DNA of 64,000 nucleotides, from the sequence record PP886230. One strand, written 5' to 3'. Source of the stretch: Escherichia phage vB_EcoM_E9.1. Positions 30,284 to 48,040 of the stretch are shown one piece after another. The notes under the pieces are model-generated. The model was not told the DNA's origin. It searched no databases and saw nothing but the letters and a program-made list of their open reading frames with translations. Every line of letters begins with the position of its first letter. Position 1 is the first letter of the stretch. Made by a program: the position numbers and the translations under genes.

Positions 30284-31474
30284 TTACAATTGTCTAGGTG
30301 TATCCAGAACATATCTATTTGTACTAGGACCACCATCATCATACGTTCCGGTTGAATATATATTTTTCATATCAGCAGTTAGAAAAGTACGATACGAACC
30401 GCGATATATTTTTATTTTATCATACATAGAATATGATATTTCTGCTGGCATTGGACATATAGTAAATCTACCAATAGTAACATTAGAACCAACACCCAAC
30501 GAACCAGCATAACTACTCGCATTTAAACCAGTTGCATATACACCAGTACTCGTAACTAGTATACTAGATTGTGTTGGGTATCCTGTATGAATTGAATACA
30601 AAGTTCCAGTTGGTAATGTCGTACTATTGCTCCCTAATACAGCAATTGCCGAACTGGTTGTGGTATTGTTACCCCATGCACCATTACTCGCTAAACCACC
30701 AACTAGAAACTGACGTGCACCAGTACTTGGATTCTCAACCAAAGCACTGACTGCACCACTTGAGCATCCAGTGTATTGTAACGTTTTTGTGTATGTTGTA
30801 CTTGGTTTATATAAAGTATATTCATTAAATGGTGTCCATGTGGTACTGGTACTTATACCTGACGTACCACCACCAATATATAAATTATTTTGTGTATCAA
30901 AAAACATTACACAGTTATTTGTTGACAGTATTTGTGCAATATCAACATTAGGCGTGACAGCTTTTACAAATGATCCATCTGTTATTTGTTGAGTACTACC
31001 AGTACCATCAGCGAATTGTCTAGCCCCACTCCAACCAGTACTCCATATTGTATTATTATCCATTAATACCGTAAACCACGTAGTACCTCCATACATCTGT
31101 TTAATTGAAGTACTTGAACTTTGCGTGTACAAATTTTCAATATATTGGTTATAACTTAAAAACGTAGTAGTACTAGTTGGTAAACCAACATGATCACCAT
31201 ATCCACAATAAAAATAATTTGAGTCATTATCTTTTACTAATAAAGTTCCTTGTGTAACCCAGCAATCGTTAACGTTTTCTCTAATTAATGTCCATGATTT
31301 TAATGCAGTGTTGTTTCCCCTACCAAATTTCCCAAAACTATTATTCCCACGTGCATATAGTTGACCATCCGTATACAGAACAACAACATCTAAATCAGTT
31401 GGGATTATTTTCTTAATTTGAAGTGGTACTGGGGCAATATTCCCATAATTCATCATTCTTGCAAAAGGTAACAT
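30284..31474 (-). CDS. leader-tagged RCC1-like beta-propeller protein
   Basis: leader MLPFARMMNYGNIAP; own spacer with hairpin and promoter. Confidence 0.7.
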   Translation of the reverse strand: MLPFARMMNYGNIAPVPLQIKKIIPTDLDVVVLYTDGQLYARGNNSFGKFGRGNNTALKSWTLIRENVNDCWVTQGTLLVKDNDSNYFYCGYGDHVGLPTSTTTFLSYNQYIENLYTQSSSTSIKQMYGGTTWFTVLMDNNTIWSTGWSGARQFADGTGSTQQITDGSFVKAVTPNVDIAQILSTNNCVMFFDTQNNLYIGGGTSGISTSTTWTPFNEYTLYKPSTTYTKTLQYTGCSSGAVSALVENPSTGARQFLVGGLASNGAWGNNTTTSSAIAVLGSNSTTLPTGTLYSIHTGYPTQSSILVTSTGVYATGLNASSYAGSLGVGSNVTIGRFTICPMPAEISYSMYDKIKIYRGSYRTFLTADMKNIYSTGTYDDGGPSTNRYVLDTPRQL

Positions 31475-31545
31475 AAATTCCTCCTTTATTCATTATACTA
31501 TATTTAATACAAATAAGAAAGCCAGTACAGTGTACTGGCATTAAA
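31475..31545 (-). promoter_or_regulatory. cassette spacer: hairpin, -10 TATAAT, RBS
   Basis: same conserved spacer. Confidence 0.55.
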
Positions 31546-32694
31546 TCATTGTATAAATGACATATCAACTTCTGTATAACTAAGAATGTTTTGTCCAGCA
31601 ATTCCCCCCATTACTACCATAGCATACCCACAATAATATAATTTCTCAGTGTCCGTAAGTATAAGTGAACCAGATGGAGTGCGTACCAAATTACACGAAC
31701 TATTAAACGAAGTATACGAAGGAGTATATGAGTACTGATTAATATTATTACCAACACCTAATTGACCAAATCCATTCGACCCAGATGCGTATAGAACTTC
31801 ATCACCTTTAGCTATATGTGATGCCATGTTACTAACACACGTATATAGAGTATAAACTCCCGAACTCAATAATGTCGGAGTTTTGTATTGTATATCGGTG
31901 GATGAAGAAGTACCACCTGTGCCAAATTCGTTCCCGTATTGTGCACCGAACTGTTTACCACAAGCGTACAAATTATTATCCGATTTAATAAAAAATGTAC
32001 TTTGATAACTTACATCAAAATCTATAACATCCGAAGAAATCATCGTCACCCCAGTAATAGAAGTTTGATTACCTGTACCTAACTGATAGTAATAGTTAAA
32101 ACCACAACCCCATAAAGTATTATCTTCTTTTAGGTATATGTTACCAACTGCCTTTTTAACCGAAGTTATAGTATCTACCCTTTTGAATGTGTTAAAAGAA
32201 TTAATGTTTGTACCATCACCAAATGATGATAGGTTCGAGTTATTGTTAACTCCACAACAATACAACGTACCATCGTTTGTTATCAAATTCACCTTCATAT
32301 CATTAAAACTACTCATGTATTTTATATCAGAAACATTAATACCACCTGATGTTATCCACGTAGTACAGTCCGTCCACAAAGTTTTTGTATCAGTTACACC
32401 AGTGAATGCCTTCGTGTTACCCGTGATAAAAACTTTTCCAGTACCTTTCTCTTCATACAATTGACAACTACTACTGTTATCTTCCAATAGAACTCGTTTA
32501 ACATTCTCTGCACAAAGAATAAATTTACTCGATGCTACACCTGTTCCAGTACCCCAATTCGTCGCAGAAGATGCATACAACTTATTAGTATAAGTATCAT
32601 GGAGATACATAGAATCACTTGAATATATTTTAAAACGCCTATCCTTACCAGGGGCAATATTCCCATAATTCATCATTCTTGCAAAAGGTAACAT
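31546..32694 (-). CDS. leader-tagged RCC1-like beta-propeller protein
   Basis: leader MLPFARMMNYGNIAP; GSNGFGQLGVGNN motif. Confidence 0.7.
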   Translation of the reverse strand: MLPFARMMNYGNIAPGKDRRFKIYSSDSMYLHDTYTNKLYASSATNWGTGTGVASSKFILCAENVKRVLLEDNSSSCQLYEEKGTGKVFITGNTKAFTGVTDTKTLWTDCTTWITSGGINVSDIKYMSSFNDMKVNLITNDGTLYCCGVNNNSNLSSFGDGTNINSFNTFKRVDTITSVKKAVGNIYLKEDNTLWGCGFNYYYQLGTGNQTSITGVTMISSDVIDFDVSYQSTFFIKSDNNLYACGKQFGAQYGNEFGTGGTSSSTDIQYKTPTLLSSGVYTLYTCVSNMASHIAKGDEVLYASGSNGFGQLGVGNNINQYSYTPSYTSFNSSCNLVRTPSGSLILTDTEKLYYCGYAMVVMGGIAGQNILSYTEVDMSFIQ

Positions 32695-32765
32695 ATTTCC
32701 CTCCTTTATTCATTATACTATATTTAATACAAATAAGAAAGCCAGTACAGTGTACTGGCATTATA
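32695..32765 (-). promoter_or_regulatory. cassette spacer: hairpin, -10 TATAAT, RBS
   Basis: same conserved spacer. Confidence 0.55.
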
Positions 32766-33905
32766 TTATTTCCACGGTAGAAGTGAATCAGGAACCCTTG
32801 TTGGTACAGTAGTTGAAGACATTCCAGTAAGATTGGGTACACCACATGTGTATAAATTATTATATTCGTCAACTAACATCGTATAAGAATAGCTCTTACA
32901 AAAACTACTAAGATTACTACCTTCTAATGCAGTAAGATCCATTTCAGCGAATGATGTTATATACATATCAGTTGTACCAATACCACATTGACCATTTGAA
33001 TTAAGGCCACATGAAAATAACTTATTATTATTATTAATTATACAGGATGGTCCGGTAAGGTTTGTCCCAAGCTCACCCACCAACTCCACTTCTCCTTGGA
33101 ATGATAAATTTGGAATTAATGTACTCATTGGGGCTACTGACCTATTTCCTGTACCTGCTTGTCCATAGTCGTTAATAGATGCAACTTTAACATTACCATC
33201 ATTAAGAAATATATAAGAAGTTTCATTTGTATTGACTGCTTTAATTGCATTACTAATCGAAGTATCTTGTGTAAATGTGAGCAAGTTTTGTGTCGTCGTT
33301 CCTGATACAAACGTTCTACCTGCATACCAATATGAACCATCATTTAGTACTAATCCAGTACTATATATTGCACAACCAGCACTGATAACATTTTCTATTG
33401 TACTATAGGTGAATCGTGAAACGCTTGAAGTTGATCCATTCCCAAAAACACCACCAGTACCAGCACCACAGTAGAACCACTTTCCATTTTTTAAAAATAC
33501 ACGCATACACGAAGATATCACAACACTATCAATATCATCTGCACTGACACCGAAATCAGTAAAGTTCTGTGTTATATCAACCCAAACGCCGTTAGTGTTT
33601 GAAGATAGTATTGGAATAACAGTACGTCTACCAGTGTACCAAATAGTACCATCTTTCTTTATAGCAATTGTTCCTTGTACCCCACCCCAATATCGTGTAA
33701 CATTTGAGTTGACAAGAGTCCATTCAGTTGAAGAGTCCAATGAACCATTACCACTTTGTCCATATGCTGAAGAACCAAACCAATATAGATTGCCATTTGT
33801 GTGTAAATAAAATTTGGCATCAGCAGAACATTGTAACCTGTTTTTAGGTAGAATCAGTTCAGGTGCGATATTCCCGTACTTAACCATTCTTGCAAAAGGT
33901 AACAT
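32766..33905 (-). CDS. leader-tagged RCC1-like beta-propeller protein
   Basis: leader MLPFARMVKYGNIAP; GLNSNGQCGIG motif; start trimmed from track ORF 32766-34067. Confidence 0.7.
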   Translation of the reverse strand: MLPFARMVKYGNIAPELILPKNRLQCSADAKFYLHTNGNLYWFGSSAYGQSGNGSLDSSTEWTLVNSNVTRYWGGVQGTIAIKKDGTIWYTGRRTVIPILSSNTNGVWVDITQNFTDFGVSADDIDSVVISSCMRVFLKNGKWFYCGAGTGGVFGNGSTSSVSRFTYSTIENVISAGCAIYSTGLVLNDGSYWYAGRTFVSGTTTQNLLTFTQDTSISNAIKAVNTNETSYIFLNDGNVKVASINDYGQAGTGNRSVAPMSTLIPNLSFQGEVELVGELGTNLTGPSCIINNNNKLFSCGLNSNGQCGIGTTDMYITSFAEMDLTALEGSNLSSFCKSYSYTMLVDEYNNLYTCGVPNLTGMSSTTVPTRVPDSLLPWK

Positions 33906-33975
33906 ATTCCCTCCTTTATTTGTTATACTATATTTAATACAAATAAGAAAGCCAGTACAGTGTACTGGCATTATG
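33906..33975 (-). promoter_or_regulatory. cassette spacer: hairpin, -10 TATAAT, RBS
   Basis: same conserved spacer. Confidence 0.55.
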
Positions 33976-35085
33976 TTATTTTGGTAAATCAATTTTAGTA
34001 AAGACTGCAACATCCTCGATTGCACCTGGAATGGCGTAATACGATCCAGTACTATACACATCTCCATTTTTGGTTAATATCGATGTCAAACCATCACTAA
34101 AAAGAACATCCCTAATCTCACTAACTTCAACGGGTAATTGTAAATTGGTAGCACTATATATAGCACCAGTTTGAGAATTGTTTAATCCCAAACCACGGTT
34201 CGCCCCAACACCCTTCTGATATGTACTAGTAATTACCATTTGTGTAGCAGTATTTAAGGCAGGTGAATTCGTCATAAACAATGGAGAACTATTAGGCAAA
34301 GTACTTACAGGAACTGCACGGAATGTAGTCGTACCTGAACTAAGAAAGTTTGGAGTTTGACCACATACGAAATATGATGTACCATTATAGTAATTTAATG
34401 CATTACCACCAATGGCTGCATCGATTACACCAGAACTACGCAATCCCCAAGTGTTAATTTGTGTTTGGTTCCCCGTACCATGCTGCCCACTACTATTCCA
34501 TCCAGAACTATATAGCTTATTATCTAATGTAAGATACATACTATCATTCGCATTGGTCATTACTTTACGAACGTTCGTAGCACATTGAGTTAATGTGTAA
34601 ATTGATGAGGAACCAATACCCAAAGAACCACGATATCCATTATCTCCTGCACCATAGAGTACTGAATTAGTGCTAAGTACAAATATTAAACCATTTGTAC
34701 ATACAATATTAGCAATTTCACTTACTGGTATAGCATTGGTAAACCAATTAGTTCTTTCAACTAATACAGTACTGTAAGAAGTAGTTGTAGAAGATGAGAA
34801 CCAGTACGTTTGACCTGATGTCCATATCGTATTATCATTTTTAATAATAACAAGTGTACGATCACCCACGAAAAAATTAGAAACATCTGCACTTACTAAT
34901 GTCCACGAAGACACCGTGTTGGTATTACCATTTCCAGATTCACCACCTTGATTTCTACCTATGTAATATAAATCATGTGAATCAGTCAATAAGAATTGGC
35001 CTTGGGTAGAAGCACCAACTTTAATTATTTTTTTAGGACCAGGGACAATATTTCCATACCTAATCATTCTTCCAAAAGGTAACAT
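33976..35085 (-). CDS. leader-tagged RCC1-like beta-propeller protein
   Basis: leader MLPFGRMIRYGNIVP; GWNSSGQHGTGNQT motif; start trimmed. Confidence 0.7.
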   Translation of the reverse strand: MLPFGRMIRYGNIVPGPKKIIKVGASTQGQFLLTDSHDLYYIGRNQGGESGNGNTNTVSSWTLVSADVSNFFVGDRTLVIIKNDNTIWTSGQTYWFSSSTTTSYSTVLVERTNWFTNAIPVSEIANIVCTNGLIFVLSTNSVLYGAGDNGYRGSLGIGSSSIYTLTQCATNVRKVMTNANDSMYLTLDNKLYSSGWNSSGQHGTGNQTQINTWGLRSSGVIDAAIGGNALNYYNGTSYFVCGQTPNFLSSGTTTFRAVPVSTLPNSSPLFMTNSPALNTATQMVITSTYQKGVGANRGLGLNNSQTGAIYSATNLQLPVEVSEIRDVLFSDGLTSILTKNGDVYSTGSYYAIPGAIEDVAVFTKIDLPK

Positions 35086-35093
35086 ATTCCCTC

Positions 35094-36296
35094 CTATTGT
35101 TGCCATAACTGCGTTGGCATTAATGTTAGTGTAGTAATACTATAAGTGCCATCTGGCAATCTACCACCATTTCCATTCCAGCCACCACATGCATATAATT
35201 TATAATCTTTAGTAATTATTATGGTTCTGCTCCAATCTTTAGATGCCATAAGAACATTGTCATAACCACCACTTATTGCACTAAGATTAAAAATATTCCA
35301 AGTTCTAACTAATGTATTAGTTCCATTACCTTCTTGACCATATGAGTTAGCACCACTACTTCTAACATATGGTGCGTATTGTGCCATAGGTGCACCAATT
35401 GATGCATTTCCCATATTACTTGGACAAATAAAAGTACTGTACTTACTTACATCAACCGTGACCGATGTGTTCCTAATTGGTGTTAGCTGATTTACCGATG
35501 TAGTCGTACCATTACCAGCTTGTCCAGAACTGTTAGCCCCGCTATAATATACAGACCCACCAGTAGTAAACCACCAAGTAACATCGTATGTAGTACTAAT
35601 ATGTTCTACATTACTAATCACGAATTTGTTCAAATATACAACAGAACTACCACCACATCCACTTTCACCAAAGTTATCCTTACCACAAAACCATGCATCT
35701 TTATTTGATTTGATATAGTGCGTTCCTTGTAATGAACATGCCATATGTGTAACTTCACCCATATTAGTCATAACTGTGAGTGTAGGGATGGAATTTTTAT
35801 TCCCAGAGCCACATTCACCATTAGTATTTCTTCCACACGCAATTACTCTACCATCGGTTAATAATATTCTAGTACTTTCACCTATATATACACTCTTGAT
35901 CATATTAGCCATAACACCTATTTTATTAAATGCAACAGTAACATCAGTCCATGTTGTCAAATAACCATTAACAGGTGTTGCATCTCCATAATCAGAAAAT
36001 GCACCCACAGACCCAGTGTAGTATATTTTATTATCCAAATCAATCATCAATGAACCTTGAACACCAAGCCAAAAGGCTGCACAGTTCCTTGCAAGTACTG
36101 TAAATGACGAAACTGCTGCTGAATTCCCAAGACCAAATTGATAAAAGTTATTACTACCATAACCATATAAAGTATTAGTTGGGTTATGGAGATACATACA
36201 GTTTGTATAATGTTGTTGTAAAACATCTGAGAACTCTACAGGTTCTGGACCTGGTGCAATATTTGCGTACTTAACCATTCTTCCAAAAGGTAACAT
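35094..36296 (-). CDS. leader-tagged RCC1-like beta-propeller protein
   Basis: leader MLPFGRMVKYANIAP; GANSSGQAGNG motif; stop close to next start. Confidence 0.7.
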   Translation of the reverse strand: MLPFGRMVKYANIAPGPEPVEFSDVLQQHYTNCMYLHNPTNTLYGYGSNNFYQFGLGNSAAVSSFTVLARNCAAFWLGVQGSLMIDLDNKIYYTGSVGAFSDYGDATPVNGYLTTWTDVTVAFNKIGVMANMIKSVYIGESTRILLTDGRVIACGRNTNGECGSGNKNSIPTLTVMTNMGEVTHMACSLQGTHYIKSNKDAWFCGKDNFGESGCGGSSVVYLNKFVISNVEHISTTYDVTWWFTTGGSVYYSGANSSGQAGNGTTTSVNQLTPIRNTSVTVDVSKYSTFICPSNMGNASIGAPMAQYAPYVRSSGANSYGQEGNGTNTLVRTWNIFNLSAISGGYDNVLMASKDWSRTIIITKDYKLYACGGWNGNGGRLPDGTYSITTLTLMPTQLWQQ

Positions 36297-36367
36297 ATTT
36301 CCCTCCTTTATTCATTATACTATATTTAATACAAAAAGAAATGCCAGTATCAAGTACTGGCATAATA
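36297..36367 (-). promoter_or_regulatory. cassette spacer: hairpin, -10 TATAAT, RBS
   Basis: same conserved spacer. Confidence 0.55.
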
Positions 36368-37546
36368 TTATCGGTTAAATTTAAAATCTGTTATGTGTGT
36401 CCATGTATGATTTAATGGGGTACTCATTGGTGTAAAGCCAGCAGGGTCTGACAAAGCTGTACCACGTGCGTACATAAATTGATTGCCAGTACAATCCATT
36501 ATAGCATAAGAACGTGTTGCTGTGCCACATTTGAACCCAACTGCACTACTTGGGGTCGGTAATACTTCAAATGTAGGTGCATTTGAACTACCACCCCCAT
36601 CTTTTGTTCCAGCTATGTACAGAACTCCATTAGTATCAATGATTAAGTTAGTCCAATATGCTTGTTCTCGACCAGCATAAAAATATGTTAAATCACCGGG
36701 TACAAATGGTAACGTTCCTTTATATATTGTAGTATTAACATTCACTGGTGCACCAGCTACACCCCATGAACTCATATAGTTTCTCCCACTTGAGTAGAAT
36801 GTAGTTCCTTTACCGTAAAGTATTAATGTTGCTTGACTTGTTCGCATTGCATTATATTCAAACTCAGGATCATCAGTAGCGTCCTTAAAAATCTGTGTCC
36901 ATGTTGTTATATTACCAGTAGTCGTAACACCCATTTGATAATAATAATTATCACCAGTAGCATAGAATTCTTTAGGGCCAGTTTGTACAATTGCATTCCC
37001 ATTAGTTAACCAAAAATCTAATGTATTAGTCTTGATCTTGGTTGGTGTGTAATTCGCCACGGTATTTCCTTTTCCGAAATAACCATTAGCGTTATTTCCA
37101 TGACCCCATAAATCACCATTAGTTGTGCGTAGGAATAATGTACCAGTATTGAATCCAACTTTTTCTATAGTACTTATGTCAATACCAACAGTCGTGTACT
37201 TCGTTGTAAAATCTTGAAAAGTACTCCAATAATTAGATGAACCATTAAACATGGTTTGTCTACCAGTGTACTTCACTTTATTATCGTTAGTGATAAGTAA
37301 TGTCCCCCACACTGACGCGAACATTAACTTAACATTTTCCATAACAAAGTATGGCTTACCGTATGCTGACGCGGTAGTGTTTAAACCTAATAGTTGTCCA
37401 TCATTACTACAACCCCATACTTCGCCGTTATCCAAAAGCATCAACATAGTAGGTTTGCCGGATGATACATCCAAAAAGAAATCTTTTGGTGTTGGTACGC
37501 CCGGTGCTTCATTTCCATAATTCAACATTCTTCCAAAAGGTAACAT
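36368..37546 (-). CDS. leader-tagged RCC1-like beta-propeller protein
   Basis: leader MLPFGRMLNYGNEAP. Confidence 0.7.
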   Translation of the reverse strand: MLPFGRMLNYGNEAPGVPTPKDFFLDVSSGKPTMLMLLDNGEVWGCSNDGQLLGLNTTASAYGKPYFVMENVKLMFASVWGTLLITNDNKVKYTGRQTMFNGSSNYWSTFQDFTTKYTTVGIDISTIEKVGFNTGTLFLRTTNGDLWGHGNNANGYFGKGNTVANYTPTKIKTNTLDFWLTNGNAIVQTGPKEFYATGDNYYYQMGVTTTGNITTWTQIFKDATDDPEFEYNAMRTSQATLILYGKGTTFYSSGRNYMSSWGVAGAPVNVNTTIYKGTLPFVPGDLTYFYAGREQAYWTNLIIDTNGVLYIAGTKDGGGSSNAPTFEVLPTPSSAVGFKCGTATRSYAIMDCTGNQFMYARGTALSDPAGFTPMSTPLNHTWTHITDFKFNR

Positions 37547-37615
37547 AGTTCCTCCTTTATCATTATACTATATTTAATACAAATAAGAAAGCCAGTATCA
37601 AGTACTGGCATCGTA
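37547..37615 (-). promoter_or_regulatory. cassette spacer: hairpin, -10 TATAAT, RBS
   Basis: same conserved spacer. Confidence 0.55.
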
Positions 37616-38725
37616 TTACTTGGGTAATGGAATTGTGGTCCATCTATTTGCGGCAACGTCACCTGGTACATATGTAGGACTACCACTTACAGCAATAGTT
37701 TCATTACCATCATATACAACACTGAAGTTTGTGCACGTATACAACGCTGCGGCATCTGGATTGTAATTTTCAAGTGTTAGTGTATTGGTGAACAAATTCA
37801 ATGCAGTAGTTGAGCCGTTTTTACCATATGCACCTGTAGTATATATCTTTCCTTCTGTTGTTGAGTACATATTAACATATGACCCAGATGATGATTTAGC
37901 AATTTTATCTATCTTGCTATCTATTGTTTTAGAGTTAAATTGAAATGGATATACCTGTACGTTAGTATCTAAACCATTTCCCAGTTCCCCATTTAACTGC
38001 CACCCTGTGTGGTACATTCCCGCATTTGTATATGCAAGCGTACTATACGCATTACCACCCATTATTTTAGTGCCAGATAATTTTAAACCAAACGATGTCC
38101 ACTTACCAGTTTCATTTCCTATGGAACCATAAGCACTTGTACCACACGCACGAAGCTCGCCATTTGACGTTAGAAGCACTGTATTATTAACGTTACCAAA
38201 TATATCAATAACCTGATTAGTGCCATTATTCAGTACTGAAGTAAAAGTACTCTGTGAGTAAGTACTACCTGAACCAACAGAACCATTTGTGTTCATACCT
38301 CTTCCATATACAATTTTACCATCAGCACTAACATAGTGCATTGAATCAAAACCAATGGATATCATTTTAATATCAGATATATCTGGAAATGAAGAAGTTA
38401 CATCTACTCCACCTAGTGGAATTGTATTATTTCCTAAACCTAATGAGACATTAGTTCCGTGCATTATAAATTTATCTTCTTTAAAATATAAAATATTATA
38501 TCCACCAGCCCATGCATTATTAACGCCATTTGTAATCAGTACCCATTTATTTTGTGTAGTAGTTCCAGTAATATTTAACTGTTGATAGTTATTGATTCCA
38601 CAACCATATAGCGATCCATCACCATATAGTACATATAAATTATCATATCCTGCAATAACTTTCTTTATTTTTTTGGGTACAGGTGCTACATTCCCATACT
38701 TTAACATTCTTCCAAAAGGTAACAT
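37616..38725 (-). CDS. leader-tagged RCC1-like beta-propeller protein (first cassette)
   Basis: leader MLPFGRMLKYGNVAP; divergent promoter region upstream. Confidence 0.7.
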   Translation of the reverse strand: MLPFGRMLKYGNVAPVPKKIKKVIAGYDNLYVLYGDGSLYGCGINNYQQLNITGTTTQNKWVLITNGVNNAWAGGYNILYFKEDKFIMHGTNVSLGLGNNTIPLGGVDVTSSFPDISDIKMISIGFDSMHYVSADGKIVYGRGMNTNGSVGSGSTYSQSTFTSVLNNGTNQVIDIFGNVNNTVLLTSNGELRACGTSAYGSIGNETGKWTSFGLKLSGTKIMGGNAYSTLAYTNAGMYHTGWQLNGELGNGLDTNVQVYPFQFNSKTIDSKIDKIAKSSSGSYVNMYSTTEGKIYTTGAYGKNGSTTALNLFTNTLTLENYNPDAAALYTCTNFSVVYDGNETIAVSGSPTYVPGDVAANRWTTIPLPK

Positions 38726-38828
38726 TATTTTCTCCTTTATTCATTATATCATATTTACCTCCTAACGAAAACCCTTGACATTCTTTCAGTACTGGTGTAC
38801 TATAGAAGGAATATAAGGAGAACTACAC
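38726..38828. promoter_or_regulatory. divergent promoter region between the two arrays
   Basis: plus strand TTGACA (~38775) - 17 nt - TACTAT then aaggag RBS; minus strand TATAAT plus RBS for first RCC1 cassette. Confidence 0.5.
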
Positions 38829-39056
38829 ATGACAAATACTCTTAAGTACTACCTCAATACTCTAAATGAACTAGAGTACGGGGAATTTCTCGCGGATAGT
38901 TCGTGGCTAATTGAGCTAAAAAATTATAATAGTCCAGGATGCACCCTTATGATGAACAATGCAATTGATACCCTCATTGTGAGTATTTTACACAGCAACA
39001 TCTGCGGGGATAGCAATAAACAATTATCAAAAATCTTAGTACTGCTATCTATATGA
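38829..39056 (+). CDS. small-paralog family member (75 aa)
   Basis: N-term ..KYYLNTL, central NNAIDT, hydrophobic C-term ILVLLSI. Confidence 0.6.
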   Translation: MTNTLKYYLNTLNELEYGEFLADSSWLIELKNYNSPGCTLMMNNAIDTLIVSILHSNICGDSNKQLSKILVLLSI

Positions 39057-39256
39057 ATATCGAACAGTACTACATCGATGCACTACCAACAAAAGGTCTA
39101 CGTGAAAGCCTACTGCATACACAAACTAATTTCAAACACCTCAAACGTAGCCCTAAACTCCTGAACTCGTACAGGAATAATAACATAAGAAATGCTTTAC
39201 AAGGGGTAGAATGTATGCAATACTATTACATCCTTACCCTATTAATCGAGTACTAA
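39053..39256 (+). CDS. small-paralog family member
   Basis: family motifs; start overlaps upstream stop. Confidence 0.6.
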   Translation: MNIEQYYIDALPTKGLRESLLHTQTNFKHLKRSPKLLNSYRNNNIRNALQGVECMQYYYILTLLIEY

Positions 39257-39257
39257 T

Positions 39258-39467
39258 ATGAATACTGAACATAAAGAATTCTACACCAAATACCTTAGCA
39301 ACGAAGAACAATTGTTTCTAAGGAGTGTATCACCTGTAAGTACCAATACTCAATTCGGTAGAGATTGCTTTAATAATTGTATACGTAGTACTCTAGAAGC
39401 AATCGAATGCAATAACAAAAATATTATGTACTCAGGTTTAATAGGACTAATATATTTCTATGAATAA
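39258..39467 (+). CDS. small-paralog family member
   Basis: MNTEHKEFYTKY...FGRDCFNNCI...LIGLIYFYE. Confidence 0.6.
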   Translation: MNTEHKEFYTKYLSNEEQLFLRSVSPVSTNTQFGRDCFNNCIRSTLEAIECNNKNIMYSGLIGLIYFYE

Positions 39468-39654
39468 TCATAAAGATTTCTATTGTAGTAAACTACCCAA
39501 ACAAGAACAGCTATCATTCTCTTTAGCACCACCTATGAGAAAGGATAATCTGTATTATAATTACGATTTCAGGATGGTGACACGTTATGCAATAGAACAT
39601 CAGTTCCCTGAAACTAAGTACCGCTCTATCCTGAACCTCATCTTTAAGTTCTAA
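39460..39654 (+). CDS. small-paralog family member
   Basis: MNNHKDFYCSKL...; overlapping start. Confidence 0.6.
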   Translation: MNNHKDFYCSKLPKQEQLSFSLAPPMRKDNLYYNYDFRMVTRYAIEHQFPETKYRSILNLIFKF

Positions 39655-39706
39655 AAGGTACACCAGGGACCGAGTACTTTAATATAGTAAGGCTAATTAC
39701 ATTATA

Positions 39707-39892
39707 ATGAATCATATAAGCTACTACTACCAACAACTATCCGACAGAGACAAGTACAGTCACAACTCCCATGTGTGGTACTACAAACGCGGCAGTATAA
39801 GAGACAAACAACATTACTTCTGTATTTCTATTAAAGAAGCACTGACAACTAAGTACACGTACCGAGCAGTACTTAAACTTATTGAAATGTAA
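39707..39892 (+). CDS. small-paralog family member
   Basis: C-terminal YRAVLKLIEM. Confidence 0.55.
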   Translation: MNHISYYYQQLSDRDKYSHNSHVWYYKRGSIRDKQHYFCISIKEALTTKYTYRAVLKLIEM

Positions 39893-39902
39893 AGAGAATA
39901 CT

Positions 39903-40085
39903 ATGAACATTGAATTGTACTTAAGTAAATTACAGCCTGGCGATAGATTCATCTACAATAAGTTCGAATTCAACTACAAGAACGGGAGCAACAAATATCG
40001 TCGAGGATACCTATATACAAGCACAAGAGATGCACAAAACGAAAAGTACACATACAGAGAAGTACTTAAACTAATCTCTATTTGA
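39903..40085 (+). CDS. small-paralog family member
   Basis: internal ATG (MNIELYLSKL); C-term YREVLKLISI. Confidence 0.55.
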   Translation: MNIELYLSKLQPGDRFIYNKFEFNYKNGSNKYRRGYLYTSTRDAQNEKYTYREVLKLISI

Positions 40086-40093
40086 GGTAATAT

Positions 40094-40279
40094 ATGAATA
40101 CATTTGAGTACTATACCAATAAACTATCTATGCCTGAAAGATCTCATCTCTATGTGTGGAGAAATGCGTATAAAAGCGGCAATAAACTTATACAAAGAAA
40201 TTCCCTTACAGTGTGTACAAATTTAATTAAAGCAGAGTACCGCACATATATTGAAGTACTCAAACTGATAGCAATATAA
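40094..40279 (+). CDS. small-paralog family member
   Basis: MNTFEYYTNKL...YIEVLKLIAI. Confidence 0.6.
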   Translation: MNTFEYYTNKLSMPERSHLYVWRNAYKSGNKLIQRNSLTVCTNLIKAEYRTYIEVLKLIAI

Positions 40280-40287
40280 GGTACTCT

Positions 40288-40467
40288 ATGCAAGAATTCT
40301 ATATCTATAACCTCCAGCACAAAGATAGATACAACTATAATAAATTCCAAAGGTACTACACAGTCGGGAACAAAAGAGATAAAAAACGTTATCTACTCTC
40401 GTGTACAGTAGAAGCACAAAACGAAAAGTACACGTACAGAGAAGTACTTAAACTAATCTCAATCTAA
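40288..40467 (+). CDS. small-paralog family member (59 aa, not in track)
   Basis: MQEFYIYNLQ...YREVLKLISI; fills gap between neighbours. Confidence 0.5.
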   Translation: MQEFYIYNLQHKDRYNYNKFQRYYTVGNKRDKKRYLLSCTVEAQNEKYTYREVLKLISI

Positions 40468-40474
40468 GGTAGAC

Positions 40475-40663
40475 ATGAACACTTTTGAGTACTACTTCAA
40501 TAAACTAAACCACATAGAACAAAGTATGCACCACACATTTATTCAGAACCATCAATCATCTTCACCTCTAATTAAAAACATATCGATTGAGATTATCACT
40601 ACCCGTGTACAGTCATCTGAACGTTATATGTATATTGATGTACTGAAACTCATCTCTATGTAA
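40475..40663 (+). CDS. small-paralog family member
   Basis: MNTFEYYFNKL...YIDVLKLISM. Confidence 0.6.
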   Translation: MNTFEYYFNKLNHIEQSMHHTFIQNHQSSSPLIKNISIEIITTRVQSSERYMYIDVLKLISM

Positions 40664-40671
40664 GGAATACT

Positions 40672-40851
40672 ATGCAACAATTCTATAGAGAACACATAAG
40701 CATTAAAGACCGTTTCATGTACGACACCTTCGTGAAGTACTACAAACTAGGAACAAAAAGTACTAAAAATATTAATCTCAATAGCTGCATTTATGCTGTA
40801 CTAACACAAGATAATCCCTACAGGGAAATCATTGCCCTGGCATCTATATAA
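40672..40851 (+). CDS. small-paralog family member (59 aa, not in track)
   Basis: MQQFYREHISIKDRF...; fills gap. Confidence 0.45.
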   Translation: MQQFYREHISIKDRFMYDTFVKYYKLGTKSTKNINLNSCIYAVLTQDNPYREIIALASI

Positions 40852-40861
40852 AGGAAACCAA

Positions 40862-41521
40862 ATGAAACTTAATCCACACAGCAAACAATACCTTAAGCAC
40901 TTTAAATACCTCAACAGTATTCAAGCAGAATCTTTTACACCAGCATATACGTATCACCCAAATGTACTAAAGAAACGAAATAAAAAGAAAAAATCCAGAA
41001 ATGTTCTCGTATCTAAGAACCTCAAATCGTACTTGAAGAAAAATAATATAGCTCTTGCTTTTATTAATATCTATAATACTGATTTAAAAGTATTGAGTAC
41101 TAATACCAGCACAAAAGCACTAAAGAATGCATCTATCTATATACACATGGATAATATCCCGTGCACTATAATTCTATCTTTCGGGAATGTATACTTCTTC
41201 GGGAATTGTAATAGCACCCATGATATCAGTACTGCACAATTCCAAATCGGCGATATGTACTGCATGGGTTCAGAAAAAATACACGATAACATGCACTTCT
41301 TCCAAAAGCAACGTACTAACGAAACTGATACAGTACTGCAATTCCTAAAAGAACTACAAAACAAAGAATTAACACCAGAAGAAGAATTCATGTACAGTAC
41401 TGTAATCGATAATCCAGAACTCTATAAAAACGCGTACAATCTAACAAAACATGTACAGGAACTTATCAGTACTGATAAGAAATTTCATCACCTCATTACG
41501 TATATTTCAAACTATGTATAA
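40862..41521 (+). CDS. hypothetical protein (220 aa) embedded in small-paralog operon
   Basis: ATG with aaggaaacc RBS; unrelated to flanking family. Confidence 0.5.
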   Translation: MKLNPHSKQYLKHFKYLNSIQAESFTPAYTYHPNVLKKRNKKKKSRNVLVSKNLKSYLKKNNIALAFINIYNTDLKVLSTNTSTKALKNASIYIHMDNIPCTIILSFGNVYFFGNCNSTHDISTAQFQIGDMYCMGSEKIHDNMHFFQKQRTNETDTVLQFLKELQNKELTPEEEFMYSTVIDNPELYKNAYNLTKHVQELISTDKKFHHLITYISNYV

Positions 41522-41696
41522 AGAATACTACAAAGATAAAATCCCAATGCATCTACAACACCATATACCAAACGTTGCATTGGGTATCAAAGATCACGCA
41601 AAGATAATGTTCCAACAATGTACTAAGTACACGCTCATATACGATGATAATCCATATATGCTGTACTACGTAGTAATGCTAACATTCAGGTACTAA
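41514..41696 (+). CDS. small-paralog family member
   Basis: MYKEYYKDKIPMHLQHHIP...MLTFRY; ATGTATAA overlap. Confidence 0.55.
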   Translation: MYKEYYKDKIPMHLQHHIPNVALGIKDHAKIMFQQCTKYTLIYDDNPYMLYYVVMLTFRY

Positions 41697-41697
41697 T

Positions 41698-41877
41698 ATG
41701 AATACTTATAAAGAATTCTACCTCTCGTACCTTAATTCCGATATAGTAACATCCAATACATTCAGTACTAAAATTATCTATAATGAATTAATGAAAGAAT
41801 GTATTAAAGGTGCTATTAACCCTAAAGATACGTATGACTTGTACTATGCAGTACTAACCCTTGTTTTCACGAAATAA
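41698..41877 (+). CDS. small-paralog family member (59 aa, not in track)
   Basis: MNTYKEFYLSYL...KECIKGAI...LTLVFTK. Confidence 0.5.
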   Translation: MNTYKEFYLSYLNSDIVTSNTFSTKIIYNELMKECIKGAINPKDTYDLYYAVLTLVFTK

Positions 41878-41885
41878 CACATAAT

Positions 41886-42077
41886 ATGAATAACCACATA
41901 GAATACTACATAGAGAAACTCCCAATGTATCTCCAACACCTTGTACCAACAGTACCATTGGGTATAGAAAAAAACTACGAAAAAGACTACTTCATTCAGT
42001 GCACTAAATCCTCGATATATATTGAAGACTATAATCGAGTACTGTATCACATCCTTTTACTAATATATAGGTACTAA
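41886..42077 (+). CDS. small-paralog family member
   Basis: MNNHIEYYIEKLPMYLQHLVP...LLLIYRY. Confidence 0.6.
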   Translation: MNNHIEYYIEKLPMYLQHLVPTVPLGIEKNYEKDYFIQCTKSSIYIEDYNRVLYHILLLIYRY

Positions 42078-42078
42078 T

Positions 42079-42261
42079 ATGCACAAAGAATACTACACAC
42101 AATTTCTCCCCAGCATTTTTGAACACTACGCCAGATACAAAGTCCCTATGGATAACGATTTGGCAGTACTGGGATTCAATAACTGCATAGAACGAAGTAT
42201 AGAAAATAGTAGTAGTTATGACCAGCTATATAACACTATCCTACTTATATTCAGGTACTAA
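42079..42261 (+). CDS. small-paralog family member
   Basis: MHKEYYTQFL...NNCIERSIEN...LLIFRY. Confidence 0.6.
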   Translation: MHKEYYTQFLPSIFEHYARYKVPMDNDLAVLGFNNCIERSIENSSSYDQLYNTILLIFRY

Positions 42262-42262
42262 T

Positions 42263-42451
42263 ATGCATAAAGAATACTACACAAAATATTTCCCAATGTA
42301 CCTCAGTACTAATCTATTAGATAAACCTCGCGGTATCAATGCACAAAACGATAAAGTGTACTTTACTATGTGCACTAAAGCATGTATACTAGATTTTGAC
42401 AGCTATCATCGAGTACTGTATCATACCCTGTACCTAGCTTTCGTATTCTAA
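42263..42451 (+). CDS. small-paralog family member
   Basis: internal ATG (MHKEYYTKYF). Confidence 0.55.
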   Translation: MHKEYYTKYFPMYLSTNLLDKPRGINAQNDKVYFTMCTKACILDFDSYHRVLYHTLYLAFVF

Positions 42452-42460
42452 AAGAACAAT

Positions 42461-42646
42461 ATGCATAAAGAATTCTACTTAAGCCATCTCGATCTAAACT
42501 CCCAAATGCTTATACCACTAATCCCAATAGATATCAAGGATAAGAAAAATACCGAACAATTCATTTACCATACACAGTGTGCGATCACCCCAAATTACAT
42601 TCCATATGAATTGTACTACATTATCGCCCTAATATATAGGTACTAA
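42461..42646 (+). CDS. small-paralog family member
   Basis: MHKEFYLSHL...IALIYRY. Confidence 0.6.
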   Translation: MHKEFYLSHLDLNSQMLIPLIPIDIKDKKNTEQFIYHTQCAITPNYIPYELYYIIALIYRY

Positions 42647-42647
42647 T

Positions 42648-42833
42648 ATGCATAGAGAATACTACACACAATTTGTTAAAGGGAACTACAAATGTGCCGT
42701 ACCCAGAACCCCTTTAAATTCTCATGACCCAAGTACTATATTCTTGTTTAATGACGCAATACGTACAGTACTCAATACTAAAGATGAAGATGTGCAGTAC
42801 GTATTCTTACTATTACTTATATACAGACACTAA
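42648..42833 (+). CDS. small-paralog family member
   Basis: MHREYYTQFV...LLLLIYRH. Confidence 0.6.
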   Translation: MHREYYTQFVKGNYKCAVPRTPLNSHDPSTIFLFNDAIRTVLNTKDEDVQYVFLLLLIYRH

Positions 42834-42838
42834 CTAAT

Positions 42839-43048
42839 ATGAATAAAGAACATAAAGAATTCTACTCCAAATACATAAGCCCCTCAGAACAAATGTTTCT
42901 AAGGACTACTCCACCTTTAAGTACTAATACATTTTTCGGCAGAGTATGCTACAATAATTGTATTCAAATGACTTTAAACGCAAATGAAGATGGTAACAGT
43001 ACTAACCTGTACTCCGGCATCATAGGTATACTATTCCTGTATGAATAA
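42839..43048 (+). CDS. small-paralog family member
   Basis: MNKEHKEFYSKY...FGRVCYNNCIQ; close paralog of 39258. Confidence 0.6.
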   Translation: MNKEHKEFYSKYISPSEQMFLRTTPPLSTNTFFGRVCYNNCIQMTLNANEDGNSTNLYSGIIGILFLYE

Positions 43049-43229
43049 TTACAAAGACTTCTATTTGAATACACTACCTACTGTACTTTCTCTAAGTGCT
43101 CAATGTAAAATCCCCCTGGATAATGCTTACGCCAGATATAGCTATTCCATAACTGTTAATCGATGTATAGAGAATCATTGCAGTACTAACCAGTACTATA
43201 ACATAATCCTACTTATATTCAGGTACTAA
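43041..43229 (+). CDS. small-paralog family member
   Basis: MNNYKDFYLNTL...VNRCIENHC...LLIFRY. Confidence 0.6.
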   Translation: MNNYKDFYLNTLPTVLSLSAQCKIPLDNAYARYSYSITVNRCIENHCSTNQYYNIILLIFRY

Positions 43230-43230
43230 T

Positions 43231-43413
43231 ATGAATAAAGAACATAAAGAATTCTATATACGAAAACTAACATTCGTCCCCGTAAGAATATATAAAGAAT
43301 GCGACCCAAGATTATACCTATGGCACTTCAATGAGTGCATAAAAGATTCTATATACCATAAGAACTATAAAGAACAATTGTGCTCAGTACTAACACTAGT
43401 ACTATCATATTAA
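43231..43413 (+). CDS. small-paralog family member
   Basis: MNKEHKEFYIRKL...FNECIKDSI. Confidence 0.6.
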   Translation: MNKEHKEFYIRKLTFVPVRIYKECDPRLYLWHFNECIKDSIYHKNYKEQLCSVLTLVLSY

Positions 43414-43428
43414 TTAATAGAGAATACT

Positions 43429-43620
43429 ATGTATAAAAACTTCTATATAAGTAAACTAAAAGAAAATGAACAAGTATGGATTAGATCTATAATTCCACTG
43501 GCATTTAATAGATATGCATTTAACAGATGTACCGAGATTGCTATAGACCCTTATAATATTAAAGAGAATGTACAGTATAATCAGTACTACTATATCTTAA
43601 TGCTTATATATAGAAAGTAA
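43429..43620 (+). CDS. small-paralog family member (last)
   Basis: MYKNFYISKL...FNRCTEIAID...LMLIYRK. Confidence 0.6.
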   Translation: MYKNFYISKLKENEQVWIRSIIPLAFNRYAFNRCTEIAIDPYNIKENVQYNQYYYILMLIYRK

Positions 43621-43639
43621 TTAAACACATAGAGACAGG

Positions 43640-43715
43640 GGAAGCTCCTAGTGAACAACCTTTATGTACAGGCGAATTGTTAAAATTCAGCCTGGACAAA
43701 TGCGATCACTAGGAT
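43640..43715 (+). other. long imperfect inverted repeat (possible RNA structure or terminator)
   Basis: ggggaagctcctagtga ... tcactaggattctcccc enclosing an inner caggc/gcctg stem. Confidence 0.4.
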
Positions 43716-44265
43716 TCTCCCCAGGCTAAACCCCGTAATCATAGGTAGTCATAAGTAATCATATATAAACATTTATATGAGCACCGTAGAATCACAGAAT
43801 GATTATATATGATTCAGTACTGATTAGTATAGACAAGATTGCTCAAGAATGCACGGAAATGTGTGTGAATGATTCAGTACTGATATGCCACTAAGTAGGC
43901 AGAGGAAGTCTGCCGTACTTTGTAGTTTCCAAGCTCCTTTTCCATTTTGTAAATTACATCAAATGTAATCAAAAGTAATCACGCAATGATTAGTACTGAA
44001 TTATTACTTTCACCTTAATTACAATTACCCTTTTACCCTTCGGGGTAAAATTCAATTACCCCTTGAGGCTCCAGCAAAAAGTTGGTTAGTACTCCATCCT
44101 AAATCTCGATCCTAAAAATTTTGGAGTACCTATGAAATAAAAGTTGGATCTTCGAAAGTTGAAATTTACGTTGGGACGTTTATGATTTGTGGGATATAAT
44201 GATGTTTGTAGACGGGTAGTTCTCAAGAATATCAGTACTGAATGGTGAAAGAAAGTTATTGACAT

Positions 44266-44296
44266 TATGATTCAGTACTGTATAATGTTTTACATA
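44266..44296 (+). promoter_or_regulatory. sigma70-type promoter with no downstream ORF
   Basis: TTGACA - spacer containing cagtactg - TATAAT, then gttttacat; no ORF over 60 aa for >1 kb. Confidence 0.45.
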
Positions 44297-44599
44297 GAGA
44301 GATGAGTTGCCGCAAACAATTCATTCACTCTACCTCCTGTCGTGAGACAGTACAGAAAGATAGTTCCTCCAATGGGTGGTACATCTTTTTGAACCTCATA
44401 TGAAAATTGTAATAACAGTACTGATATTAACAGAATGGTGTCAGTACTGATTTTAATCTAAAGCATTATGCCACCAGCACAAGCTGGTGGATTCCCTCTA
44501 ACAGTATTCAGTACTACATGATAGTCTTCATCCTCCTAGGGTAACATAGTGAGGGCTATGATGGCAGTACTGAATACTCCCTTTCAAAAGATAGATCTA

Positions 44600-44800
44600 T
44601 GGTATAGTACTGACGGATTTTGGGCGTAGTTACCCTGGATGGATTTTGGACGTAGATATGTCTAGCCCTCCAGAAGTCTGGAAGTAAAGATGGCTATCCA
44701 TCTAGACGGCTAAACGGCTAGATTTCTGGATGGCTAGACGTTTGGACGGCTAAACGGCTAGATGGGTACACGTCTGGAAGTATAGACGGCTAAATCAAAA
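44600..44800. repeat. iteron-like direct repeats
   Basis: gacggctaaacggctagat twice (~44705, ~44745), partial third copy, ctggaagta twice, attttggRcgta repeats. Confidence 0.55.
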
Positions 44801-45410
44801 TTTTATTTTGTTTTTCCAATAGTTCCCCTACCGCGTGGGGATAGTTTCCCCGCAGTATCTGAAGTTAGATTTTTCTGAATCTGGAATCATTATCTTATAA
44901 ACTGGGGGCAATGTCAACGGCCTGGCCGGATATTTTTAAAAATTTTTTCAGTACTGAATTTTGGGCGTAACTATGCACCCGATGGGCTTGAGTCTTTCTC
45001 GACTTGATGGAACTATTATACAGTACTGAAAAAATAAAGCAATACCCTGGAAGCAAAAAAGTTTTAATTAATTTGCTTGCTATCCTGGGCCGGACTATGG
45101 TACTATATTTCAGTACTGAGAAAGTGCGTTTACCTGCTAGGGTGCGGGAGTCTATCCTTTTTTTATATCTTGAATTTTGGACGGATCTTCCCACCCCCTG
45201 GGGTATCCGCTTTCTCGCGTCTATGTAGTAATTATACGCTTTTTCAGGATCAAGTCAATACCTAAAAACAAAATAATTGAAAATAATTTAACGCGTTTAA
45301 ACGGCCCGTAACGCCCTGGATTGTTGGGAGTGGTGCAAATGTATAGCTTAGGTGTATTAATGCGTTAGAATGCGTCTGAGGCCGTTTTATGGGGTGTAGT
45401 AGTGATTTGG

Positions 45411-45503
45411 TTGATTCAGTACTGAATAATAGTACTCCTATATAGAAAGATAGTTCCCCTGGATTGATTCAGTACTGAATAATAGTACTCCTATATAGAA
45501 AGA
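45411..45503. repeat. 40-bp perfect direct repeat x2
   Basis: ttgattcagtactgaataatagtactcctatatagaaaga at ~45411 and ~45464. Confidence 0.7.
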
Positions 45504-45534
45504 AAACTATTTTAAAAGTATTTGTAGAAAGTAC

Positions 45535-45593
45535 TTGCACCGTACTGATAAAAGCGTATAATGTTTTACATCGAGAGCGGGAACACTTCCCGC
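45535..45593 (+). promoter_or_regulatory. PeSL-like cassette: promoter plus 5' stem-loop
   Basis: TTGCAC - 16 nt - TATAAT gttttacatcgaga GCGGGAAcacTTCCCGC. Confidence 0.6.
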
Positions 45594-45617
45594 TACACTT
45601 TAAGAGAGATTAATACG

Positions 45618-45980
45618 ATGGCAACTCAAATCACCAAAATTATTGCTAACCTGGTTAACTTCCGCGACGAGATGAAAGATCTTCCGGCGGCGACGGTTAA
45701 AACTCACATTGACGCATACCGCGAACTGATTAAAATGCTGCCGCTTAAGCGTGAACAATACGCCGCTACCGTGATGCTTGATGCGATGATCCATAAGATG
45801 ATCGCCAGTGATTTGACGATGGTTTATCAGTATATGGGCGAAAATTTCGCGGTGTGTAGTAAGCCAGTACCAGGGATGGCAACAACTGAGGAATTGCACG
45901 GCTTAAACTTAAAACAAGATGCATGGGATAATATGCCTCGTTTCCTGGTATGGGCTGACAGTGGCAAAATTTACAAATAA
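45618..45980 (+). CDS. hypothetical protein (120 aa), GC-richer codon usage
   Basis: ATG after RBS taagagag; track ORF start is an ATG inside the -10 hexamer. Confidence 0.6.
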   Translation: MATQITKIIANLVNFRDEMKDLPAATVKTHIDAYRELIKMLPLKREQYAATVMLDAMIHKMIASDLTMVYQYMGENFAVCSKPVPGMATTEELHGLNLKQDAWDNMPRFLVWADSGKIYK

Positions 45981-45994
45981 GTTTAATAAAGTAC

Positions 45995-46053
45995 TTGCAA
46001 ACTATGTTTAATGGCGTATAATGTTTTACATCAGGTGGGGAATAGTTCCCCAC
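45995..46053 (+). promoter_or_regulatory. PeSL-like cassette
   Basis: TTGCAA .. TATAAT .. GTGGGGAAtagTTCCCCAC. Confidence 0.6.
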
Positions 46054-46075
46054 TATATAAGAGGATTAAAAAAAA

Positions 46076-46315
46076 ATGGCTAAATCAAAAATGTTCTTAG
46101 GTCACAAAAACAAAACTCATTGGAATGTAAGCCTGTGGATTAATAACGATGAGGGATTGTATCGGTTGGCCCTGGACTTTATTGCCGCCAATACTAATCG
46201 CAATGATGCGGCCCGTCATATGATGTTATTTTTAGAACAGACTGGACAAGATAAAACACCGGACGGATTCAAATATAGCACTACTGCGATCCGTGCGGCG
46301 ATGGTTGGAATGTAA
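46076..46315 (+). CDS. hypothetical protein (79 aa)
   Basis: promoter and 5' hairpin upstream; RBS gagga. Confidence 0.55.
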   Translation: MAKSKMFLGHKNKTHWNVSLWINNDEGLYRLALDFIAANTNRNDAARHMMLFLEQTGQDKTPDGFKYSTTAIRAAMVGM

Positions 46316-46403
46316 TAGAATAGAATTTATTTAAAGTACTATTGCACGGGGATAGTACTTTATAATAGTGTTTTATTCATACACCAACGATAAGGGCAAC
46401 AGC

Positions 46404-46670: not shown

Positions 46671-46677
46671 AAAGTAC

Positions 46678-46736
46678 TTGCAAACTATGTTTAAAGGCGT
46701 ATAATGTTTTACATCGAGAGCGGGAACTCTTCCCGC
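46678..46736 (+). promoter_or_regulatory. PeSL-like cassette
   Basis: TTGCAA .. TATAAT .. GCGGGAActcTTCCCGC. Confidence 0.6.
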
Positions 46737-46757
46737 CTATAACCTGGAGTAATAAAA

Positions 46758-47384: not shown

Positions 47385-47416
47385 ACTTACATCAACTACT
47401 GAATGAGGGTTACAAA

Positions 47417-48028: not shown

Positions 48029-48040
48029 TTTAAAAAGTAC

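Follow-up and report, generated by a model that had tools for sequence, protein, structure and literature searches.

Does a short divergent intergenic region join two expanded gene families of a jumbo phage into one regulated island, or does it mark the boundary between two transcription programs? The question is raised by a region of 103 bp (32% GC) at positions 38726-38828 of the window, i.e., the whole 64-kb stretch of Escherichia phage DNA analyzed here, from which a tandem array of RCC1-like beta-propeller genes runs leftward and a dense array of small open reading frames (ORFs) runs rightward. A preliminary description of this DNA placed a promoter and a ribosome-binding site on each strand of the region and considered the two families to be linked, physically and probably regulatorily, as two arms of one 19-kb island. 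Every motif that it listed was recovered at its position on both strands. With somewhat better than even confidence, the region is read here from its sequence as two back-to-back promoters of different temporal class, i.e., an early sigma70-type promoter directed to the right and a T4-type late promoter directed to the left; the polymerase form, the start sites, and the timing at both promoters are inferred.

Phage identity and organization of the locus

In a megablast search with positions 37600-40600 (3 kb compared), the window is 99.9% identical to Escherichia phage SHEFM2K, and approximately 30 other E. coli and Salmonella phages with genomes of 310-386 kb show 86-99% identity. By nucleotide identity, the window is a part of an Asteriusvirus (PBECO4/121Q/phAPEC6-like, "Rak2-like" group) E. 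coli jumbo phage of approximately 350 kb. If it belonged to a nucleus-forming phage of the phiKZ/Goslar type with its own RNA polymerases, sigma70 motifs would be irrelevant; this assignment was rejected because the relatives are Asteriusvirus/Rak2-like, and it is also countered by the gp55-like late sigma carried by these relatives and by the dependence of PA5oct, a member of the clade, on the host polymerase.

The features of the locus are collected in Table 1. The propeller arm and the small-ORF arm together extend from 24611 to 43620 (19.0 kb), and 32 of 36 related phage records contain the divergent junction as one contiguous stretch, which bears out the physical adjacency of the two arms. 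Conservation was assessed by alignment of the spacer from 16 Asteriusvirus genomes, among which 44 of the 103 intergenic columns vary; since these genomes are approximately 90% identical, the conservation statistics are weak. The TAAATA core of the leftward candidate and the TTGACA core of the rightward candidate lie 17 bp apart without overlapping, and the two predicted starts are approximately 64 bp apart. No Rfam family and no tRNA were found in the whole 64-kb window, and the RNA folding z-scores of the spacer (-1.4 on the plus and -1.9 on the minus strand) are not significant. An RNA element in the spacer was rejected, because the fold is driven by the two mirrored Shine-Dalgarno sequences and no Rfam family is matched.

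Table 1. Genes and predicted signals on both sides of the divergent intergenic region (window coordinates; minus-strand signals are given in reading direction)
Feature	Position	Strand	Remark
Plus-strand genes	1-24630	+	
Approximately 12 tandem genes annotated "regulator of chromosome condensation"	24611-38725	-	
Remaining RCC1-like cassettes	24611-37546	-	eight repeat the leader
Hairpin terminator of first propeller gene	37609-37591	-	terminator scan
First RCC1-like beta-propeller gene, 369 aa	37616-38725	-	Pfam RCC1_2 and RCC1-like domain; PHROG 4219, E = 6.5e-66
ATG of first propeller gene	38725 to 38723	-	
Shine-Dalgarno AAGGAG of first propeller gene	38737 to 38732	-	
TGATATAAT, containing TATAAT (38748 to 38743)	38751 to 38743	-	read as downstream TATA/initiation element; alternatively extended -10
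TAAATA core, T4-type late promoter candidate	38757 to 38752	-	unchanged in 16/16 genomes
-35 hexamer TTGACA, rightward sigma70-type	38775-38780	+	unchanged in 16/16 Asteriusvirus genomes
17-nt spacer with palindrome CAGTACTG (38787-38794)	38781-38797	+	length unchanged in 16 genomes
-10 hexamer TACTAT	38798-38803	+	ends 26 nt upstream of ATG
Predicted rightward transcription start	38810	+	from standard sigma70 geometry, ~7 nt past -10; leader ~19 nt
Shine-Dalgarno AAGGAG	38815-38820	+	8 nt ahead of ATG 38829; one variable column in 16 genomes
Plus-strand genes resume	38829 to window end	+	first 4.8 kb (38829-43620), dense small-ORF array
Approximately 21 small ORFs (59-75 aa), tightly packed, and one 219-aa ORF	38829-43620	+	
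219-aa ORF	40862-41521	+	PHROG 29152; inserted between subfamilies A and B

The leftward element as a candidate late promoter

Phage T4 uses the host RNA polymerase throughout infection, and its early promoters carry -35 and -10 hexamers. By contrast, T4 late promoters comprise a single -10-like box, TATAAATA, which occupies -13 to -6, lacks an accompanying -35, is read with the phage gp55-type sigma, and sits a few tens of nucleotides before structural genes. The box in the intergenic region is GGTAAATA, a 6/8 match to this consensus, and a 2-nt insertion in Ecwhy_1 gives the perfect TATAAATA. Thus, the late core in the window differs from that of T4 in being nTAAATA (with G or T before it) rather than the full TATAAATA, and in being followed by a TATA element at N3-5. 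The window holds 25 copies of TAAATA on both strands (0.20 per kb per strand); 10 of these precede propeller-family starts by 24-28 nt, and four stand before the approximately 125 plus-strand genes. The composite TAAATA-N2-6-TATA was observed 10 times versus 8.2 expected from shuffles, i.e., without an overall excess, and only placement and strand are informative.

Structural genes of a relative carry the same motif. In a survey of the 138 kb of phAPEC6 that hold the virion genes (110-248 kb), (T)ATAAATA or nTAAATA, usually followed at N3-5 by TATA, was found 20-60 nt before the ATG of many virion genes verified by mass spectrometry (protein list in PMC7247149), including those for the major capsid, scaffold/protease, sheath, and neck proteins as well as gp274c, gp275c, gp306c, gp315c, and gp323c. 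G, C, and T all occur before TAAATA in these positions, and the variants GGTAAATA (gp247), ATTAAATA (gp276c), and TAAATA-AAG-TATAATG (gp274c) recur in the same forms in the propeller leaders. Furthermore, gp237c of phAPEC6, annotated as a late sigma, matches PHROG 12791 (E = 3e-154) and PHROG 234, "late sigma transcription factor" (E = 8e-18); SHEFM2K has a 100% identical copy. NCBIfam gave no match to this protein, whereas PHROGs did. As judged from these profile matches, the gene content of the phage includes a gp55-like late sigma factor. Homologs of the co-activators gp33 and gp45 are reported missing in the related phage CBB (PMC5259590). The phAPEC6 genome carries the same tandem array, with approximately eleven RCC1-like "DNA condensation" genes, whose leaders, terminators, and promoters are not analyzed in the phAPEC6 paper (PMC7247149). 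The propeller proteins gp549 and gp551 were detected in phAPEC6 virions by mass spectrometry, on the basis of 4-5 peptides (PMC7247149). The gene for gp549 adjoins the same spacer and corresponds in position to the first cassette, although it is a diverged paralog, with nucleotide homology to the first cassette of the window only from approximately 45 nt inside the gene.

In the proposed mechanism, the host core RNA polymerase with the phage gp55-like late sigma would read the TAAATA core and fire to the left, and TATAAT, three bases downstream, would serve as the A/T-rich initiation region. By T4 geometry, transcription would start near 38746 and produce a leader of approximately 21 nt that contains the Shine-Dalgarno sequence.

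The preliminary description had instead assumed sigma70 promoters on both strands, with TGATATAAT as an extended -10, such that both arms would fire together early; this model is considered unlikely. An exact match to TGnTATAAT, which is rare (0.14 per kb per strand), stands in the window and is kept by 13 of 16 relatives, the TG is present in the first cassette only, where internal cassettes have TAGTATAAT, and the string TGATATAATG also occurs upstream of phAPEC6 gp199c, gp246c, and gp279c. By itself, however, a minus-strand TATAAT is expected by chance in approximately 13% of such 103-nt regions and thus is no evidence of a promoter. Only 5 nt separate this TATAAT from the Shine-Dalgarno sequence and 17 nt from the ATG, compared with 27-40 nt from -10 to ATG in the phAPEC6 examples; with a start approximately 7 nt past the -10, a sigma70 transcript would begin at the very first Shine-Dalgarno base. 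Moreover, the hexamer is damaged in 3 of 16 relatives, with T-7 lost in JNE01 and Turkey5 (TATAAC) and T-12 lost in ph0011 (GATGAT), and TATAAC likewise stands in the leader of the internal cassette at 32766-33905, whereas TAAATA is invariant. A leftward -35 was not found (best match TTTTCG, 3/6), and a -35 of the GGGACA type, the box of the TGnTATAAT class of phAPEC6, was rejected for TGATATAAT because the box is absent. Thus, an extended -10 string is present without a usable leader or conserved -10 bases, and the virion proteins encoded by the positional counterparts argue against joint early firing. The minus-strand TATAAT and its ribosome-binding site are both there as described; the reading of TATAAT as a sigma70 -10 is not sustained, although some leftward initiation by sigma70 is conceivable, given the perfect extended -10 in 13 of 16 genomes.

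The proposed regulatory link is affected accordingly, since the motif classes at the two promoters differ (early sigma70-type versus late gp55-type) and predict opposite timing; the link is not supported. In addition to this difference in class, the only palindrome in the spacer, CAGTACTG, which might have marked a co-regulated divergent pair, is lost in two of 16 genomes. On this sequence evidence, the propeller genes and the small ORFs are neighbors that are probably not switched on together, rather than arms of one regulon.

The predicted rightward promoter

The plus-strand TTGACA matches the sigma70 consensus at 6/6 positions and TACTAT at 4/6, with T-12, A-11, and T-7 present; with the 17-nt spacer, the total score of the site is 10/12. 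Such a score or a higher one is expected in approximately 4% of 103-nt regions per strand (0.036 from shuffles and 0.044 from the coding background). On the plus strand of the window, 81 sites reach at least 10/12, including 15 perfect 12/12 sites; 54 are intergenic, corresponding to 4.5 per kb of intergenic versus 0.5 per kb of coding DNA, and 39 end 15-65 nt before a plus-strand start, a placement for which 9.6% of positions are eligible (binomial p = 6e-19). A low-stringency scan of 30-48 kb yielded 74 sites against 81.5 expected from shuffles, without an excess. Among the 16 genomes, the -10 varies at positions 3 and 4 only (TACAAT in four genomes and TAGAAT in one), the changes go toward the consensus, and all 16 retain T-12, A-11, and T-7, whereas 8 of the 17 spacer bases vary although the spacer length is fixed. 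That no more than two of the 12 hexamer columns vary has a hypergeometric probability of 0.048, which is supportive but weak. The plus-strand promoter and ribosome-binding site of the preliminary description are thereby retained as a credible candidate, given the enrichment of the class upstream of genes and the conserved hexamers, and by its motif, spacing, and placement the TTGACA-17-TACTAT site is a member of a real sigma70-type promoter class of this genome. The spacer palindrome CAGTACTG is absent in JNE01 and Turkey5; because AGTACT occurs at approximately 8 per kb of intergenic DNA, it is not significant, and its interpretation as a specific operator was rejected on this frequency and on the loss in the two relatives.

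In the proposed mechanism, a host sigma70-type, early-class promoter would fire to the right, with a start near 38810, and would drive the 4.8-kb small-ORF operon. The assignment to the early class is by analogy. In PA5oct, the rifampicin-sensitive host polymerase is needed, TTGAC/TATAATA promoters are found at mapped starts, and terminal-repeat genes are early (PMC7318152). PA5oct belongs to the same clade, but it has a Pseudomonas host and is of another genus, and neither an RCC1-like array nor a small-paralog operon was examined there; by extension from PA5oct, early sigma70 use of the rightward promoter is inferred. Predictions for CBB and GAP32 distinguish three promoter classes, namely an RpoD-like class with an upstream element, a class with a divergent -35, and an ATAAATA late class; the RpoD-like class is concentrated in short hypothetical genes and the terminal repeat, and ATAAATA stands before structural genes (PMC5259590). 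The region analyzed here resembles this arrangement in having one RpoD-like and one ATAAATA-like member. CBB and GAP32 are of other genera, and the divergent -35 is TGAAACG in CBB and GGGACA in phAPEC6.

It is also conceivable, though clearly improbable, that the rightward promoter, although real, is of the middle class and is recognized by an RpoD-like sigma of the phage instead of host sigma70. Such a factor is encoded in Asteriusvirus and related phages (Sharanji paper; CBB_513, PMC5259590). Two further copies of TTGACA-17-TACTAT, at 21429 and 59329, end 29-30 nt ahead of start codons, and the promoter at 38775 shares with these look-alikes the unusual TACTAT -10, short leaders, and a lack of the A/T-rich upstream stretch that is present in the strongest promoters of the window. 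Nevertheless, its -35 is the perfect host consensus at the optimal 17-nt spacing, its -10 drifts toward TATAAT in relatives (TACAAT, TAGAAT), and the other predicted non-host classes in the clade use the different -35 boxes GGGACA and TGAAACG. The phAPEC6 class GGGACA-N13/14-TGnTATAAT occurs in approximately ten copies in the surveyed 138 kb, mostly before replication and metabolism genes, as well as at window positions 9678-9707; it differs from the TGAAACG box of CBB and, from its placement, may be a middle promoter class.

Propeller cassettes as self-contained units

Nine RCC1-like propeller genes share a leader consisting of a hairpin terminator followed by TAAATA-N3-TATAAT-GAATAAAGGAGG. 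When the upstream regions are lined up, the internal cassettes show the hairpin GCCAGTAC(n3-5)GTACTGGC, a T-run, TATTAAATATAGTATAATGAATAAAGGAGG, N5, and the ATG; in the first cassette, TAAATATGATATAATGAATAAAGGAG is kept and the hairpin is absent. The scan called hairpin terminators at 30277, 31539, 32759, 33969, 36363, and 37609. With their own terminator and the same leader, most cassettes appear to be self-contained units, and the claim, as taken up here, that the region drives the whole propeller arm was abandoned on these grounds. The candidate late promoter would serve the first RCC1-like cassette only, ending at its own hairpin terminator, and most later cassettes would repeat the combination of a terminator, a late promoter, and a Shine-Dalgarno sequence. 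As the cassette leaders share one ancestor, the agreement among them does not count as independent evidence.

For most relatives, homology with the window at the nucleotide level starts approximately 45 nt into the first propeller gene (at approximately 38676-38682); the leader and the first ~15 codons are conserved, and the remainder is a different paralog. Such a pattern points to shuffling of cassettes, or to gene conversion, with the breakpoint shortly after the start of the coding sequence.

The common ancestry of the leaders leads to a further alternative, held to be very improbable, in which the rightward promoter alone works and the leftward leader is a duplicated translation-initiation leader without a promoter, the propeller genes being transcribed by read-through or from an unrecognized element. 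Gene conversion among copies of one ancestral sequence might account for the conservation, and the composite late motif lacks enrichment in raw counts. Supply by read-through is, however, opposed by the strong hairpin terminator and T-run ahead of most cassettes. Furthermore, the DNA upstream of the first cassette is antisense small-ORF DNA only and offers no good promoter in the leftward direction; a 10/12 site 829 nt off, inside a coding sequence, is the best available. That all motifs are chance matches in AT-rich DNA, with no transcription start in the region, is hardly credible: the low-stringency scan of 30-48 kb no higher than shuffles and the chance frequency of TATAAT alone (~0.13) fit this view, but the strong sites are enriched and placed upstream of genes as a class, the hexamers are invariant, and both divergent gene sets need a promoter, for which 38726-38828 is the sole non-coding DNA between them.

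The small-ORF operon

The small ORFs comprise a subfamily A of 13 members (PHROG 11711) and a subfamily B of six members with the C-terminal sequence ...YREVLKLISI, and by tblastn the family was found in Asteriusvirus records only. The preliminary description placed a "first small paralog" behind the promoter; a small-ORF operon does stand there, but the first two ORFs at its 5' end are only marginal members of the family (E of about 0.004 and 0.001 versus the 21-sequence set). An 11/12 site, TTGACA-17-TATCAT, lies inside a small ORF at 42396-42424 (+), 37 nt upstream of the ATG of the next ORF (42461), with AGTACTG abutting its -10; from this position, it may be an internal promoter of the operon.

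The AGTACT palindrome

AGTACT is present in 291 copies in the 64 kb versus approximately 22 expected from base composition (13-fold), whereas the next most frequent 6-mer palindrome of the window has 76 copies. Within genes, 193 copies are present, spread over all three frames, compared with 24 +/- 4 when codon order is shuffled and 54 +/- 6 when synonymous codons are shuffled with the proteins kept. Copies are most closely spaced in the small-ORF array (7.1/kb) and the terminal repeat (6.6/kb), and the motif also forms the stems of the propeller-cassette terminators and lies in the rightward promoter spacer. In the structural and replication regions of phAPEC6 (110-248 kb), it is 5- to 6-fold over-represented, and in the distant relative CBB (170-195 kb) 6.8-fold.

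Among 43 strong early-type promoters, approximately 13-17 have cAGTACTG directly against the -10 (AGTACTG-TATAAT), with examples at 849, 5163, 15492, 44259, 48296, 53803, 56539, 57847, and 60692, and approximately ten promoters have aaaGTAC directly ahead of a TTGCAA -35. With these flanks, the early promoter consensus seems to be longer than two hexamers. Early promoters of the window differ in this respect from those of T4, of which, to our knowledge, AGTACTG against the -10 is not a feature. It is highly doubtful, though conceivable from its abundance and placement, that AGTACT is a site bound or marked by a factor of the phage clade that acts at early promoters and couples both arms; if so, the rightward early promoter might, for example, be shut off as the leftward late promoter comes on. 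No mention of AGTACT was found in the CBB paper (PMC5259590) or in the bacteriophage promoter literature searched.

The terminal repeat and other promoter-like modules

Both terminal-repeat copies are held in the linear records of ELP-22 and fEgEco12 and start at the equivalent of window position 43894; thus, the small-ORF array ends approximately 270 bp before the repeat, and 43894-64000 lies inside it. A small hairpin, GGCAGAGGAAGTCTGCC, is located at 43894; judging from these records, both the physical end of the genome and the edge of the direct terminal repeat are probably at this position. The surrounding 43620-45560 is gene-poor (approximately 2 kb with few ORFs) and has consensus promoters on both strands (44259 +, 44917 -, and 45258 -).

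Two further modules were observed in the window. A fused terminator-promoter, aaGGGTTGACTTCGGTCAGCCCTTTTTgcTATAAT, occurs in six copies on the plus strand (6937, 10363, 12766, 17053, 18335, and 20593), in which one arm of an 8-bp, UUCG-looped hairpin supplies the -35 TTGACT and the T-run provides the promoter spacer. In addition, a stable GC hairpin (-8 to -15 kcal/mol) with the motif CATCaAG-GGGGAGAA-nnn-TTCTCCCC lies downstream of 20 of the 43 early-type promoters, at approximately +5 to +30, with stem sequences that differ among copies. Almost all of these hairpins are in the terminal-repeat part, at approximately 44259-62700 (+), e.g., at 45995, 48296, 50947, 53803, 56539, and 60692; the rightward promoter at 38775-38803 has none.

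Implications and perspective

No promoter analysis was found in the phAPEC6, Sharanji, and fEgEco12 papers, and the literature searches returned no promoter, transcript, start-site, or reporter data for Asteriusvirus. The present analysis provides three working promoter consensus sequences for Asteriusvirus, for which no published one was found in the literature searched; beyond that, it is routine phage promoter annotation, and the promoters are of already known kinds. Its main consequence is that the two most expanded gene families of Asteriusvirus are assigned to different predicted temporal programs. The small ORFs beside the terminal repeat look like early host-takeover candidates, and the RCC1-like propellers resemble late proteins that are in part carried in virions. 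This assignment would narrow the hypotheses regarding the functions of both families and argues against the 19-kb block as one co-regulated island.
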